A stretch of 64,000 nt of DNA, from contig DYGT01000001.1 of the NCBI GenBank assembly GCA_020724555.1, positions 65,197 to 129,196 on the forward strand, read 5' to 3'. The stretch comes from Candidatus Microgenomatus sp. GTDB lineage: Bacteria > Patescibacteriota > Microgenomatia > UBA8517. Below are positions 50,385-63,982 of this stretch, piece by piece. Both the position numbers and the translations under genes were made by a program. The notes under the pieces are model-generated. The model ran no database searches, was not told where the DNA came from, and was given only the letters and a program-made list of their open reading frames with translations. Position 1 is the stretch's first letter. The number at the start of each line of letters is the position of its first letter.

Positions 50385-51884
50385 CTACCACCCCATCCGG
50401 CTTTCAAATATATATTGAGCGGCAAAGTTAACATGGTTAGGATATGTGACATTGAAAGAGGGTGATATGCAGCTTAGGTTTCTGGTTGCACTCGGTTCGG
50501 TGTAGCCAATTACAGGATTTGTATAAATAAAAAGCGCTATCATTTCTGCAAAATCTTCAACAAGCATTCCTCTTCGATGCGGTAATGGATATGTACAAAC
50601 AGGTCTTTCTGAGGAGACTCCAACATCTCCGCGGTAAAGCTCGTTTTGTACTGATGGATACCTGTGTGCAAAAATATGTCCACTTTCATGGGCTAAGGTA
50701 TAAATCGCTGAGCCTACAGTTGAACTTCCTAATTCATAAATCAAGATTGTGTTTGAAGATATAACCTCGCCTCCATATGTTTCGGTGCCAGAGTAGGTTA
50801 AATAAACAGGACCTTTACTGCATATTTTATCCATATAGGCTCCTGTCTGTGCCATAAACTCTGTTGCTCGAATCATGTTAGCTTTATATGTTTCTGGCCA
50901 AGATCCATTAAGGACGAAACAAGTTTGTGTTAGAAATATCCCACCCCCCAAATCTTTATAGACGCTACTTCCGGGTGGTACCACATAGCTACTGTTGGTG
51001 ATAACCAGAATTGTAAATCCAATAAATAATGGTATTGCTATCAAAGAAATTACAATTGGCCAGATAACCACAGACATAAAAGCTCCCATGATTGCTAAAA
51101 AAAGAAGAACACTTCTTTGGCCTGCTTTTTTAAAGCCTTCACTTCCGCCTTGGATGTAGGATAGTCCTCCGGTGACAAGTGCCAGCCCAAATGCAGGAGG
51201 AAAAAAAATTCCCAAAGCTGCCGCACCCAGTGAAACCGCGGCTAAATTACTTCCATCACCATCTCCGGTCAATTTTATTAGTCCTGATCGTAAAAGATCC
51301 TTGGCTTTGTTAAGAATAAAAATATCGGCTTCAACCAACAAATACACACCGGCGGAGGCGGCGGCTCCCAGGGATGCAAGGCCAAGCCGGGCCGCGATCC
51401 TGGTGCTTAATCCTTGGACAGCCTTCTTTTTTACAACACTTTCCACGTCTGGAATTTGAGGGATTTTATTTAAAAGCTCGCCGATTTTTCCTTTAATTTC
51501 AGGAGACAAGGTTTTGCTTGCAAGTTCGGTGGCACGCCTACTTACTTCCTGGGAAACAATTTGCGTTGGAATGGGGGGAGCCCCGGTTTGGCTTAAAACT
51601 TCATTGTGGTGAAGTATTTGTTCCCAAGCGGCTTGTTTTTTATCAGCTGGAGTATTTTCGTTTAGATCTACGGCCTGGGCGGCGATCTCCACTTTTTGTA
51701 CTTCTGCTTCTTCCTCAGGAGGCAAGGTTATTTCTTGACTATCAGGGTTAAGATTTCCATTTAACCAAACGATAAGTTCGGATAATTCTTGTTGAGTGTA
51801 AAAACGGTTTGGGTTCTCCGGGTCTTTTCCTGAGGTTAGGATTTGTTGGATCGCCTGGTAGGTGTATTTGTTTTTATCATCCAT
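50385..51884 (-). CDS. Membrane protein with a C-terminal zincin-like metallopeptidase motif (HExxH...E), part of the T4SS-like cluster
   Basis: Central TM segments. C-terminal TLAHESGHIFAH (HExxH) with a downstream EDFAEM Glu, gluzincin-like. Its start overlaps the VirB4 stop, suggesting the same operon. Confidence 0.5.
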   Translation of the reverse strand: MDDKNKYTYQAIQQILTSGKDPENPNRFYTQQELSELIVWLNGNLNPDSQEITLPPEEEAEVQKVEIAAQAVDLNENTPADKKQAAWEQILHHNEVLSQTGAPPIPTQIVSQEVSRRATELASKTLSPEIKGKIGELLNKIPQIPDVESVVKKKAVQGLSTRIAARLGLASLGAAASAGVYLLVEADIFILNKAKDLLRSGLIKLTGDGDGSNLAAVSLGAAALGIFFPPAFGLALVTGGLSYIQGGSEGFKKAGQRSVLLFLAIMGAFMSVVIWPIVISLIAIPLFIGFTILVITNSSYVVPPGSSVYKDLGGGIFLTQTCFVLNGSWPETYKANMIRATEFMAQTGAYMDKICSKGPVYLTYSGTETYGGEVISSNTILIYELGSSTVGSAIYTLAHESGHIFAHRYPSVQNELYRGDVGVSSERPVCTYPLPHRRGMLVEDFAEMIALFIYTNPVIGYTEPSATRNLSCISPSFNVTYPNHVNFAAQYIFESRMGW

Positions 51885-53835
51885 TTAAATCATTGTAGTC
51901 TACTATGGTTTTGGTTTCGAGCGGAGTTGCCGTTTGCTGTCCGCTTGGAGCTTTCGAATCTAAGATCTGAGTATCCCGTGGGTTTGTAGTGATAAGTTGA
52001 TATTCTTCGCTTGAGGCCACTATTTTTATGGGAGCATGGTGAGGCCCGGCAAATAAAATTCCCTCTCCCACGTTGGCCGCCAACAGTAGTTGTTTTTCGC
52101 CCTGAGATAAATAAAAGGTTTCCGCGATTTTGTCGATGGCTGCGGGGGATTGTTTTAAAAGAAGCCGCATGGCTGAGTTAGTTACGACCGCTTTTCCAAT
52201 GTCTTGTGACAAGAAATCCTCCACATCCTGAGTGATTGTAGTAAGCCCTAAATAGTATTTGCGGGCGCGTTTGACTATGGACCATAAAAACTGGGCAGTG
52301 TCTTGGTAGCGCATCATGTGCCAGGCTTCGTCGACAACCAGAAGGCGCCTTTTGACATCGCGGCGGATTTTGGTCCAAATAAAGTCTAGTATGACAAACA
52401 TAGCAATCGGCCGGAGAGCGTCTTCGATGTCGCGCACGGAAAAAACGGTGAAAGGATTTTTAATGTCGATGTTTGTTTGCTGGTCAAAAATGCCGCGGTA
52501 GCTGCCTTTAACATATTTTTCAATCCTTGCCGCAAGATCCAGAGCGTCTGTTGTTTCCATGCCGATTAAAGCTTTATAAAGATCCTCTATTAACGGCGGT
52601 TCGCGGTCCTGGGTGTCGGGATCCGGTGTAATTCCTTTGGCGCGGTAGGCGTTAATTAAAGCTTTATCCAACAAGGCTTCCTGAGATGCCGTCATTTGAC
52701 CCATGATTATTTTAAATAAAGAGTGAAGCGAAAGAATTTTTAAGCCCAGCTGGTTTTCCCCTTCTTCACGGATTTGGCTTAAGTCAAACGGATTGATTTT
52801 GCTGGGACTTGAGAAAGAAAAAGCAATATATTCACCGCCCACAGCATCGCATAGATTTTTATATTCGTTTTCCGGGTCAATCACAATCATTTCTGTGCCA
52901 AACATCAGGCTTCTTAAAGACTCAAGTTTTACAAAAAAGCTTTTTCCTGCTCCTGAGGTAGCAAAAACGGTCATGTTGCTGTTTTCCAGCGAGAATCGGT
53001 CAAAAATAATAAACGAGTCGTTTTGTGAATTAATGCCATATAAAATCCCATCATCACTTGACAGCTCGGCTGTGGTAAAGGGAAAAGTGGTTGCCAGGGA
53101 AGTAGTGTCCATATTTCTGGTAATAGTAAGTTGGTCACGCCCAAAAGGGGCAGTCGATAAAAAGCCGCGTTCGTGATCCAAGGCCGCGTGTTTGGCGACG
53201 ATGAGGATTGAGCCCAAAGTGGACTCAACCCGCTTTGTAATACTGTTTAGTGCCTCCACAGATGTGGCCGGGATAGTGATATAGAAGGCGAATTCAAAAA
53301 AACGTTCCGCGCCTTTAACAAGTTGCTCTTGAAGTATTTTAGCGTCGTCTAATTTTGCCTGAGTAGAAGGATTTACGATTTTTCCTCTTTGGATGTCTGT
53401 CGAAATTTCGGCTTCCATTTCAGTAATTTTGCGCCTCAGATCATCTAAAATTGTCCTACCTTCCACCGGATATATATAAAATGATAAATCCAAGCTATGG
53501 TTAAAGTTAATAATAGGCTCCATCCACCCGGGAACGACAAAGCGTGGGTATCCTGCCACAAAAAGAGTGCGAAAATAAACATCACCAATTTTTATGTAAT
53601 CAAAGTCTATTTCGCTTTCATTGGGGGCGATAATGTCATCCGGCGGCACACCTTCTTTAAAGGCTTTTATTGGATCCAGCTTTGGTTTTTGAGCTTGTGG
53701 TATGTGAATTCCGTTGGGTTTTTTCGTTTTTTTAATTTGCGGTAGCTTCATTTTGAATCTCCTTTGTCTCCCCGGACTCTGTTTCTTGGATTTTATCAAC
53801 TTTAATGCTTTCGGTGTCGGGGTTATAAGTATCAA
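51877..53835 (-). CDS. virB4: VirB4/TrbE/CagE-family type IV secretion ATPase (ATPase portion)
   Basis: Walker A TSGAGKSFFVKLE and Walker B LLVVDEAWHMM, in the conserved VirB4 C-terminal half. The real start may be MKLPQIKK (53751). Confidence 0.8.
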   Translation of the reverse strand: MILITPTPKALKLIKSKKQSPGRQRRFKMKLPQIKKTKKPNGIHIPQAQKPKLDPIKAFKEGVPPDDIIAPNESEIDFDYIKIGDVYFRTLFVAGYPRFVVPGWMEPIINFNHSLDLSFYIYPVEGRTILDDLRRKITEMEAEISTDIQRGKIVNPSTQAKLDDAKILQEQLVKGAERFFEFAFYITIPATSVEALNSITKRVESTLGSILIVAKHAALDHERGFLSTAPFGRDQLTITRNMDTTSLATTFPFTTAELSSDDGILYGINSQNDSFIIFDRFSLENSNMTVFATSGAGKSFFVKLESLRSLMFGTEMIVIDPENEYKNLCDAVGGEYIAFSFSSPSKINPFDLSQIREEGENQLGLKILSLHSLFKIIMGQMTASQEALLDKALINAYRAKGITPDPDTQDREPPLIEDLYKALIGMETTDALDLAARIEKYVKGSYRGIFDQQTNIDIKNPFTVFSVRDIEDALRPIAMFVILDFIWTKIRRDVKRRLLVVDEAWHMMRYQDTAQFLWSIVKRARKYYLGLTTITQDVEDFLSQDIGKAVVTNSAMRLLLKQSPAAIDKIAETFYLSQGEKQLLLAANVGEGILFAGPHHAPIKIVASSEEYQLITTNPRDTQILDSKAPSGQQTATPLETKTIVDYNDLNG

Positions 53836-63618: not shown

Positions 63619-63655
63619 AGTCTATTTTAGCATTTAACTTAAATGAAGCTCAAAT

Positions 63656-63982
63656 CTATCTGTTAAGGTAAATGTTAAAGTTTCGAATAGCTCCTTGTCC
63701 TGTAAGGGCGGCAATAGTGTTTATGATTAAATAGGCCATAGCCGCAAAAGCAAGCCCTGCAATAGCCCAAGTAATGGCATTTTTAGCGGCCGCTGTTTTT
63801 TGCTGGTCGCCTCCTGAGGTTATAAATTTAAATCCACCAACAATAAGCATAAGAAAAAGGACGATTGCCAAAAGGGGAAGGGCAAACGTTAAAACGTTTG
63901 AAAATATTATTTCTAAATCTTTAAAGCTTGCAGGCTCATCCCCTGATATGTTTTGTGGTACTTGCGCATAAATTGTCTGCAT
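63656..63982 (-). CDS. VirB2/TrbC-like pilin candidate (small two-TM protein)
   Basis: 108 aa with two hydrophobic segments and a Gly/Ala-rich region, at the upstream end of the minus-strand T4SS-like operon. Confidence 0.4.
   Translation of the reverse strand: MQTIYAQVPQNISGDEPASFKDLEIIFSNVLTFALPLLAIVLFLMLIVGGFKFITSGGDQQKTAAAKNAITWAIAGLAFAAMAYLIINTIAALTGQGAIRNFNIYLNR

Follow-up and report, generated by a model that had tools for sequence, protein, structure and literature searches.

We analysed a 64,000-nucleotide (nt) stretch of DNA from Candidatus Microgenomatus sp. (NCBI GenBank assembly GCA_020724555.1, contig DYGT01000001.1; hereafter the window), in which a gene cluster resembling a type IV secretion system (T4SS) lies beside the probable chromosomal replication origin (oriC) and continues past the window end. 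All eight open reading frames (ORFs) that an initial annotation had placed in this cluster are present; seven of its assignments hold, and the 838-amino-acid (aa) gene has no recognisable domain, as had been claimed. The cluster, the plus-strand gene beside it and the origin comprise the following features, given in window coordinates from the outer end of the cluster towards oriC:

63656–63982, minus strand: VirB2-like T4SS pilin, 108 aa
59857–63618, minus strand: secreted Cys-rich giant protein, 1253 aa, with an N-terminal hydrophobic signal, 32 Cys and pI 4.5
62647–63504, minus strand: head of the giant (aa 39–324), a glycoside-hydrolase-like TIM barrel
60514–62625, minus strand: conserved Cys-rich core of the giant (aa 332–1035)
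59860–60501, minus strand: all-alpha C-terminal domain of the giant (aa 1040–1253)
58141–59826, minus strand: VirB6-like polytopic membrane protein (candidate), 561 aa, with 9 hydrophobic segments
55632–58148, plus strand: acidic soluble protein, 838 aa, pI 5.1, with no transmembrane (TM) segment
54451–55485, minus strand: PrgI/VirB3-like two-TM protein with a CarboxypepD_reg-type beta-sandwich, 344 aa from the ATG at 55485
53732–54454, minus strand: TrsD-like protein, a free-standing VirB4 N-terminal domain, 240 aa
51877–53751, minus strand: VirB4 ATPase of MPF_FATA type, 624 aa from the ATG at 53751 (652-aa ORF)
50385–51884, minus strand: membrane-anchored protein in the cell-wall-hydrolase slot, 499 aa
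50967–51884, minus strand: conserved N-terminal and TM module of the 499-aa protein (aa 1–306)
50388–50966, minus strand: exchangeable C-terminal HExxH...ExxAE domain of the 499-aa protein (aa 307–499)
49675–50373, plus strand: bitopic membrane protein, 232 aa, with one TM segment at aa 36–54
48243–48537, no strand assigned: probable oriC, a DnaA-box cluster in the dnaA–dnaN spacer with 3 exact and 2 one-mismatch TTATCCACA boxes

The centre of the cluster is its VirB4 ATPase. The VirB4 ORF scores 376.9 bits against the NCBIfam model NF045971 (conju_CD1110; cut-off 325), contains a TraG/VirB4 P-loop domain (P-loop_TraG, 1.6e-35) and has the C-terminal domain of Thermoanaerobacter VirB4 as its nearest solved structure (PDB 4ag5, 5.4e-48). 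These matches identify it as a VirB4 of MPF_FATA type, as in the Patescibacteria-clade T4SS. The preceding 240-aa ORF matches positions 109–292 of the mycoplasma VirB4 model NF045975 and the ATPase ORF positions 294–893, and because these matches abut, the two ORFs together represent one VirB4, in agreement with the initial annotation of a VirB4 in two ORFs. The TrsD-like ORF also matches NF041427 TrsD (1.3e-7) and carries the precomputed Pfam assignment PF26593 TraC-like; a sequence-profile search against PDB chains returned nothing significant for it. In isolation, the 20-nt overlap of the two ORFs in different frames looks like a frameshift, and one could read the locus as decaying and non-functional, with VirB4 broken in two and VirB8 and the type IV coupling protein (T4CP) missing. 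We consider such decay exceedingly improbable, as the TrsD-like and ATPase proteins are separate ORFs in 69/69 related loci, which differ in spacing and between them show all relative frames. A frameshift or pseudogene is thereby ruled out, and the split is ancestral. The N-domain protein is a TrsD, a family that is widespread and, in the Saccharibacterium Southlakia epibionticum, essential (Quiñonero-Coronel et al. 2025, PMC12102498), all genes of the locus are intact ORFs, and PrgI, TrsD and VirB4 are 99–100% conserved between strains.

Upstream of TrsD, the PrgI ORF is open from 55557 (368 aa), with 55485 the likelier start and 344 aa the public gene call. Its PrgI domain (PF12666) scores 28.9 bits against a gathering threshold (GA) of 27, and a Pro/Gln-rich linker joins this part to a C-terminal beta-sandwich whose CarboxypepD_reg match of 29.8 bits falls just below the GA of 32.3. 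Among 41 orthologues, PrgI is found in all 41 and CarboxypepD_reg in 34, so that the VirB3-like fusion proposed at first annotation is borne out with both of its parts.

The 561-aa polytopic protein is the candidate VirB6. It has no Pfam or NCBIfam match, the PF04610 and PrgH profiles do not match it, none is precomputed for 120 homologues, and a PDB profile search gave no match at E≤10; UniRef calls two of its homologues TrbL/VirB6. Foldseek relates it to R388 TrwI/VirB6 and Legionella DotA with E-values of only 0.4–0.6 and without sequence-level similarity, and it differs from TrwI in being about twice as long and in having some 150 extracytoplasmic residues at its N-terminus. Fold searches and homologue names thus suggest a VirB6 candidate, and of the earlier VirB6/TrbL-like label the polytopic topology stands while a family-level match is lacking.

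The 108-aa protein at the window end is a VirB2-like pilin, as had been proposed: it matches Pfam T4SS_pilin PF18895 (7.7e-12, 45.6 bits, GA 26.6) and has an SGGD loop between two hydrophobic helices. To follow the cluster past the window we used the window's own contig, recovered by an exact-protein look-up (JGI 3300029893, 68.7 kb), on which locus L081 is identical to window positions 53656–64000, and examined 10 kb beyond. From the window end the cluster continues for another 3.6 kb, as the initial annotation had thought it might, and the additional stretch holds eight more pilin-domain genes, making the 108-aa pilin the last gene of a nine-gene array. Upstream of it are seven further small pilin paralogues, 17–30% identical to the window pilin, and a 311-aa pilin-domain protein (L081 6412–9883). 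In this 311-aa protein, encoded upstream of the small paralogues, a signal peptide is followed by some 200 aa that are rich in beta structure and contain Cys, and the C-terminus is a pilin domain; it may be a tip or adhesin-type pilin. With the array the locus comprises about 16 genes, and the term 'minimal' T4SS no longer fits. Beyond the pilins L081 encodes a divergent SpoIID-like gene, a bPH_2 protein, two uncharacterised genes, tmRNA and smpB. The SpoIID-family (peptidoglycan-remodelling) gene (L081 4657–6291, minus strand) encodes 544 aa with a long coiled-coil N-terminus and is divergent from the pilin operon.

Two large proteins of the cluster appear to be directed at an envelope. The giant's size, hydrophobic signal and 32 Cys agree with the secreted, Cys-rich protein described earlier. 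Its head is predicted as a (beta/alpha)8 barrel (AlphaFold2 (AF2) predicted local distance difference test (pLDDT) about 90), and its top Foldseek matches in the PDB, at prob 0.99 and E 3.6e-3 to 5e-2, are GH79 and GH5 glycoside hydrolases and the C. difficile wall protein Cwp19. The head contains the motifs WNEPG at aa 139–143 (NEP at aa 140) and EGWG at aa 248, and sequence searches of it give no match. On the strength of the predicted fold, it resembles glycoside hydrolases and is a candidate member of clan GH-A, and enzyme activity is putative. The core has no relative in Pfam and PDB searches, and core and tail match no characterised family. An SLT lysozyme, guessed for the C-terminus from 'WIQESGASNY', is not claimed; the homologue in L020 has a sub-threshold SLT_3 match (22.6 bits against a GA of 27) in a domain that does not align with that of the window giant.

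Within aa 172–295 of the 499-aa protein are three hydrophobic segments, followed by HESGH at aa 399–403 (50676–50690) and EDFAEM at aa 443, consistent with the membrane-tethered HExxH...E protein first annotated. The motif YTLxHExGH, TYP and ExFAE are invariant across 9 homologous HExxH domains, and the domain is also C-terminal in other proteins of this slot. It has the HExxH and downstream Glu of zincins, a resemblance at motif level only; no peptidase or peptidoglycan-hydrolase family matched it, and the best PDB profiles (metalloprotease, snapalysin) reach E 0.1–0.2. Among 32 relatives, the same slot is occupied by Peptidase_M23 in 11, CHAP in 3, NAGPA in 2 and Amidase_2 in 1, and in one protein (P0129, also in contig L085) 96% identity over aa 1–306 gives way to Peptidase_M23 after a shared 'VVPPG' junction. 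Gram-positive T4SS operons encode a membrane-anchored multi-domain cell-wall hydrolase, for example PrgK (LytM/M23, SLT and CHAP), TraG and CwlT. From the slot position and the interchange with M23, CHAP and amidase domains, the 499-aa protein would fill a VirB1-type cell-wall-hydrolase role, its own domain being a candidate hydrolase whose substrate is suggested by position and interchangeability. That the zincin, the CarboxypepD_reg fusion and the giant are not standard T4SS parts, as the initial annotation held, is therefore overstated for the zincin, whose slot holds M23, CHAP and amidase hydrolases in relatives. As side observations, DUF4012 proteins stand in the post-virB4 slot of 4/32 relatives, and the window itself encodes an 854-aa DUF4012 protein (40333–42897, minus strand) near a Wzy_C ligase.

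Inside the cluster, the 838-aa gene runs on the opposite strand. The VirB6-like gene (minus) and the 838-aa gene (plus) converge, their 3′ ends overlapping by 8 nt (58141–58148), and this convergent gene divides the minus-strand cluster into two transcription units. The 838-aa protein has no domain and no Pfam or PDB relative, and no effector, toxin or translocation-signal domain was recognised in it; its family counts 73 relatives among 1.84 billion representative proteins. In 27 loci the same opposite-strand slot holds a soluble 528–1080-aa gene; these genes form 14 or more sequence clusters, and hhalign connects two of the clusters (93.8% probability). The slot itself is conserved and its gene is hypervariable. 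Common ancestry of all these proteins was considered and not adopted, as hhalign joined only 2 of the 5 multi-member clusters compared.

Immediately beyond the hydrolase-slot gene, the 232-aa bitopic protein is a possible accessory part of the cluster. In L004, L008 and L010 its gene follows the hydrolase gene directly and has the same orientation as virB4. Its bitopic topology suits VirB8, yet searches of Pfam and of PDB profiles found no relative.

The genomic setting places this machinery at the origin of replication. Five exact DnaA boxes occur in the 64-kb window, all at 46911–49842, three of them in the dnaA–dnaN spacer, and the cumulative GC-skew minimum falls at about 48.5 kb. With dnaA and dnaN directly to its left, the T4SS cluster begins 716 nt past dnaN and 1.85 kb from the DnaA-box cluster, is transcribed toward oriC and hence head-on to replication, and has a GC content of 0.39–0.44, like its flanks. 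Rfam identified no RNA element in the cluster, and promoter and terminator scans gave results at chance level. Two further features lie at the far end of the window:

2043–4397, minus strand: T4CP-like ATPase (VirD4/TraD/TrwB superfamily), 784 aa, 46 kb from virB4
946–1809, plus strand: Xer-type tyrosine recombinase, 287 aa, adjoining a DivIC-like septum protein (392–796, minus strand) and tRNAs

The T4CP-like protein has a single N-terminal TM segment and matches TrwB_AAD_bind (28.3 bits, GA 20.5) and TraG-D_C (23.6 bits, GA 22); its match to TIGR03743 (6.4e-14) is far under the cut-off, and that to TrwB (1e9r, 2.4e-4) covers the Walker A region alone. In hidden Markov model searches VirB4, PrgI and the pilin score above curated cut-offs and the T4CP domains above GA, in line with the labels of the initial annotation. 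Of the tRNA/integrase hotspot said to adjoin this coupling ATPase, the T4CP stands, and the 'integrase' proves to be the Xer-type recombinase by DivIC and tRNAs, which looks like a housekeeping enzyme with no evident mobile element. ARAGORN places a tRNA-Ile (anticodon TAT) at 1917–1990 on the minus strand and two tRNA-Met(CAT) at 47–121 and 224–294. The remainder of the window is housekeeping (glycolysis, transketolase, GroEL, leucyl-tRNA synthetase (LeuRS), ribonucleotide reductase (RNR), YidC). A Beta-lactamase2-family protein (14827–15825, minus strand, 5.5e-54) adjoins a central-carbon run of 2-hydroxyacid dehydrogenase, PfkB kinase, class-I aldolase, transketolase and GAPDH.

To place the locus among its relatives, we scanned a GTDB genome collection for VirB4 and compared gene order, from tblastn and ORF maps, in the best 80 of the 323 related loci found. 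VirB4 identity across these 80 loci is 57–90%. About half are titled Patescibacteria or Microgenomates, and the rest uncultured Gammaproteobacteria or Pseudomonadales with the same synteny; the Microgenomates-titled loci cover Woesebacteria, Blackburnbacteria, Amesbacteria, Collierbacteria, Shapirobacteria, Pacebacteria and unclassified members. The Gammaproteobacteria and Pseudomonadales titles (L001, L005, L007, L013–L016 and others, which are binchicken third-party annotation (TPA) metagenome-assembled genomes (MAGs)) look like placeholder taxonomy, because VirB4 identity of 60–90% and dnaA-linked synteny in these loci are Microgenomates-like. Among the 80 loci, Woesebacteria-like genomes share one gene order: pilins, giant, VirB6-like gene, opposite-strand gene, PrgI, TrsD, VirB4, hydrolase slot, dnaN, dnaA and yidC. 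The dnaA gene lies within 10 kb of the locus in 65/80 loci, and in 59 of these 65 virB4 is directed at dnaA/dnaN, at a median distance of 1.5 kb. The best plasmid VirB4s, from Actinobacteria and Firmicutes, are just 30–37% identical to the window VirB4. We place the window VirB4 provisionally in the Patescibacteria clade, judged by synteny or record titles as a proxy together with plasmid identity of at most 37%. Because synteny, orientation and the VirB4 split are shared and identity to plasmid VirB4s is low, the cluster bears the signature of old vertical inheritance at a fixed place by the chromosomal origin. The head-on orientation noted at first annotation stands; the horizontal acquisition drawn from it does not, since the orientation toward dnaA recurs in 59/65 loci and VirB4 is at most 37% identical to plasmid homologues. 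We note separately that a head-on arrangement is conserved here for a machine that is essential in Saccharibacteria, which is noteworthy given the hypervariable modules inside it.

These data bear on whether the cluster is a fragment of an integrative and conjugative element (ICE) or integrated plasmid, with relaxase, T4CP and VirB8 nearby or recently lost. In favour of such an origin, VirB4 passes the NCBIfam cut-off for CD1110 (CTn2-type) conjugal ATPases, Gram-positive conjugation operons typically have PrgI, TrsD and hydrolase-type genes as such neighbours, and a T4CP-like gene and a tyrosine recombinase are present in the window. Against it, a scan of 38 window ORFs and of the called genes in the next 10 kb revealed no relaxase domain; the dnaN/dnaA/yidC synteny is class-wide, with VirB4 58–90% identical within the class versus at most 37% to plasmids; GC content is like that of the flanks, and the recombinase is Xer-like, sits by DivIC and is 46 kb off. 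Relaxases are moreover recorded in just 103 of 3,035 surveyed Patescibacteria genomes and seldom near virB4 (PMC12102498). The initial annotation had allowed for a canonical ICE with relaxase and VirB8/VirB11 just outside the window, and in the 10 kb by which the contig was extended none of these is there. As the 10-kb extension consists of pilins, SpoIID, bPH_2, tmRNA and smpB, and the rest of the window of housekeeping genes, the ICE fragment is largely refuted, and we regard it as very unlikely. VirB9, VirB10 and VirB11 were not found, and no sequence match to a VirB8-like subunit was obtained. The locus is not a canonical conjugation T4SS, as the initial annotation had argued from missing relaxase and VirB9–VirB11 genes and a distant T4CP: relaxase and an origin of transfer (oriT) were undetected, origin synteny is class-wide and no compositional difference sets the locus apart in its chromosomal setting.

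The features of the cluster correspond closely to a published system. Southlakia epibionticum cannot grow epibiotically without its T4SS genes and their pilin array, in a system with neither a relaxase nor a coupling protein that could be recognised, and protein export was suggested for it (Wang et al. 2023, PMC10633639). A survey of 3,035 Patescibacteria genomes found 2,425 VirB4s to be monophyletic and nested in MPF_FATA, with TrsD, a homologue of the VirB4 N-domain, as the commonest companion, PrgI/VirB3 common, and VirB2-like pilin arrays of 2–11 genes, averaging 25% identity, most abundant in Microgenomatia (PMC12102498). The same survey reports T4CPs near virB4 in 148/5,713 cases, T4SS genes beside dnaA/dnaN in Microgenomatia and Paceibacteria, and VirB6 as 'scarce' in Microgenomatia, which its authors put down to divergence; in Southlakia it describes TrsD as essential and the T4CP as non-essential (PMC12102498). 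A 2025 T4SS review restates this picture. We conclude that the locus is very probably a vertically inherited, chromosomal Patescibacteria-clade T4SS of a Woesebacteria-like (Microgenomatia) genome, derived from monoderm MPF_FATA conjugation machinery and repurposed. A role in host or epibiont interaction, offered at first annotation, agrees with the published view (PMC12102498; PMC10633639); the novelty it implied does not hold, as the system was described in 2023–2025 and the system-level oddities are all in published accounts. A keyword search of the text of PMC12102498 found no lineage-wide fusion of PrgI and CarboxypepD_reg, no HExxH domain, no hypervariable opposite-strand gene, no Microgenomatia VirB6-like candidate and no strain-level module replacement.

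Strain-level module replacement is the one modest new point of this analysis, not found in the literature read. We compared the window with contigs L085 and L086, which come from other sequencing runs, a comparison that covers one pair of strains. Nucleotide identity is 95–99% over the pilins, the giant core and tail, and PrgI–TrsD–VirB4 through the hydrolase N-module, with dnaN/dnaA equally close; protein identity between the window and the near-identical strain is 100% for PrgI, 100% for TrsD, 99.5% for VirB4 and 98.6% for dnaN. Similarity is lost at 62634–63546, the giant head; at 55667–59535, an interval that takes in the entire opposite-strand gene (30% over 214 aa) and the greater part of the VirB6-like gene (51% aa identity); and at 49857–50970, the hydrolase catalytic domain together with the ectodomain of the 232-aa protein. 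In L085 the giant head is instead a GH5 beta-mannanase-like domain (PDB 3wfl, 3.4e-7), and the hydrolase catalytic domain is exchanged from HExxH in the window to M23 in L085; only the first 77 aa of the 232-aa protein are kept in L086. Two independent assemblies carry the M23 allele, and several carry the allele of the window. Replacement affects the parts that are extracytoplasmic or enzymatic and, in addition, the soluble protein encoded inside the cluster. This pattern fits host-specific contact without proving it, and the simplest reading of the strain-variable modules is that they face the host and determine specificity. One may go further and picture a recombining host-specificity locus, in which the choice of host envelope open to attack would be set by nine pilins and four exchangeable modules (the giant head, the VirB6-like protein with the 838-aa protein, the hydrolase catalytic domain and the ectodomain of the 232-aa protein) around a near-invariant PrgI/TrsD/VirB4 motor, with the hypervariable soluble protein as cargo or cargo adaptor. 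We think this extended picture doubtful as it stands: replacement is shown for one strain pair, and both its host-range meaning and the cargo role are speculation.

The variability of the 838-aa protein also bears on what the machine might transport. In an effector or toxin exporter aimed at the host, the 838-aa protein, the giant glycanase or both would be the substrates. The 838-aa protein, soluble and without a signal, is encoded in the cluster and differs extremely even between strains with 99–100% identical machinery; effectors or polymorphic cargo would show this pattern. The suggestion of protein export (PMC10633639) and the T4CP in the genome point the same way. No known effector, toxin or translocation-signal domain was found, however; the T4CP is non-essential in Southlakia (PMC12102498), and the giant and the hydrolase have Sec signals or anchors and so do not need the T4SS to leave the cytoplasm. 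Dedicated export to the host is, on this evidence, a tentative alternative that we hold to be rather unlikely.

Transport in the opposite direction has been proposed for related organisms. The machine would then be a dedicated nucleic-acid importer like H. pylori ComB or archaeal Ced, taking up DNA or RNA from the host or the environment to supply nucleotides to an organism without nucleotide biosynthesis. As in ComB, there is no relaxase and no cluster-linked T4CP, and the VirB4 shows weak likeness to the Ced ATPases CedB and CedD (NF041017, 3.2e-14; NF053655, 5e-7); these matches lie far under the family cut-offs (52 versus 700 bits), and no ComB- or Ced-specific components and no DNA- or RNA-binding or nuclease domain were found in the cluster. 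Deletion of comEC abolishes competence and leaves viability unaffected (PMC12857230), and a review proposes the T4SS as a nucleotide-acquisition route, ComEC being dispensable in Southlakia. A 2026 preprint describes a cultivated patescibacterium that takes up host RNA and whose tubes, which 'may be T4SS pili', penetrate the host (10.64898/2026.06.21.733656); it establishes neither that the tubes are T4SS pili nor that RNA passes through them. We therefore treat a dedicated importer as possible and, on balance, improbable.

For the repurposed, vertically inherited Patescibacteria-clade T4SS that we prefer, the following mechanism may be envisaged. VirB4, TrsD, PrgI and the VirB6-like protein would assemble at the membrane, and the anchored hydrolase would open the wall of its own cell, in the manner of PrgK, TraG and CwlT of Gram-positive T4SSs. 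A tube reaching the host cell might form from polymerised pilins, with the giant glycanase acting on the host (or own) envelope, and the resulting conduit could move macromolecules between host and epibiont and so support an epibiotic or parasitic life, with no DNA conjugation. As to direction, we give a slight preference to penetration of the host or import of its material over the export of effectors. We infer this mechanism chiefly from Saccharimonadia genetics and Gram-positive T4SS biology. Several points weigh against our interpretation. T4SS function in Microgenomatia is transferred from Saccharimonadia; hydrolysis of peptidoglycan or of the host wall is suggested only by where the genes lie and how their domains are exchanged, since no characterised family matches the HExxH domain or the giant core and tail; a VirB8-like protein was not identified among the proteins of the locus; an extracellular pilin filament in a monoderm would be an extrapolation; and with a T4CP in the genome, DNA or protein could still be exported through a coupling protein.

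Few machines besides the Patescibacteria T4SS have been shown to be essential to epibiotic life in this very large, mostly uncultured radiation. The window adds no new kind of system; it provides a clean Microgenomatia example with a full parts list, including a candidate for the VirB6 that HMM surveys call scarce in this class. Module replacement around an identical ATPase core points to the probable host-facing parts, which are first candidates for tests of host specificity.

The locus can be compared with several known systems. With the VirB2 paralogue arrays of Bartonella and Anaplasma it shares tandem, highly divergent pilins in a T4SS locus, a comparison drawn in PMC12102498; those arrays differ in belonging to diderm MPF_T effector translocators of eukaryote-associated pathogens. 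The Gram-positive MPF_FATA T4SSs (pCF10 Prg/Pcf, pIP501 Tra, pGO1 Trs, ICEBs1 Con and CTn2 CD1110) share with it a CD1110-family VirB4, PrgI/VirB3, TrsD (in the pGO1 subclass), a polytopic VirB6-type protein and an anchored hydrolase, and likewise have no outer-membrane core. Unlike these conjugative systems, the window locus has no detected relaxase or oriT, an unlinked T4CP and no recognisable VirB8-like protein or PrgB-type adhesin; it has VirB2-like pilins, which are otherwise wanting in monoderm systems, and in contrast to their mobility it appears fixed at the chromosomal origin and vertically inherited. The closest match is the Patescibacteria-clade T4SS itself (PMC12102498; Southlakia SEML1_0006–0019, PMC10633639), with which it shares an MPF_FATA VirB4, an adjacent TrsD, PrgI/VirB3, a divergent PF18895 pilin array, the lack of a relaxase, a T4CP encoded elsewhere, a chromosomal site at dnaA/dnaN and hydrolase genes downstream of virB4. 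We regard the window locus as a member of this clade, with no essential difference from it.

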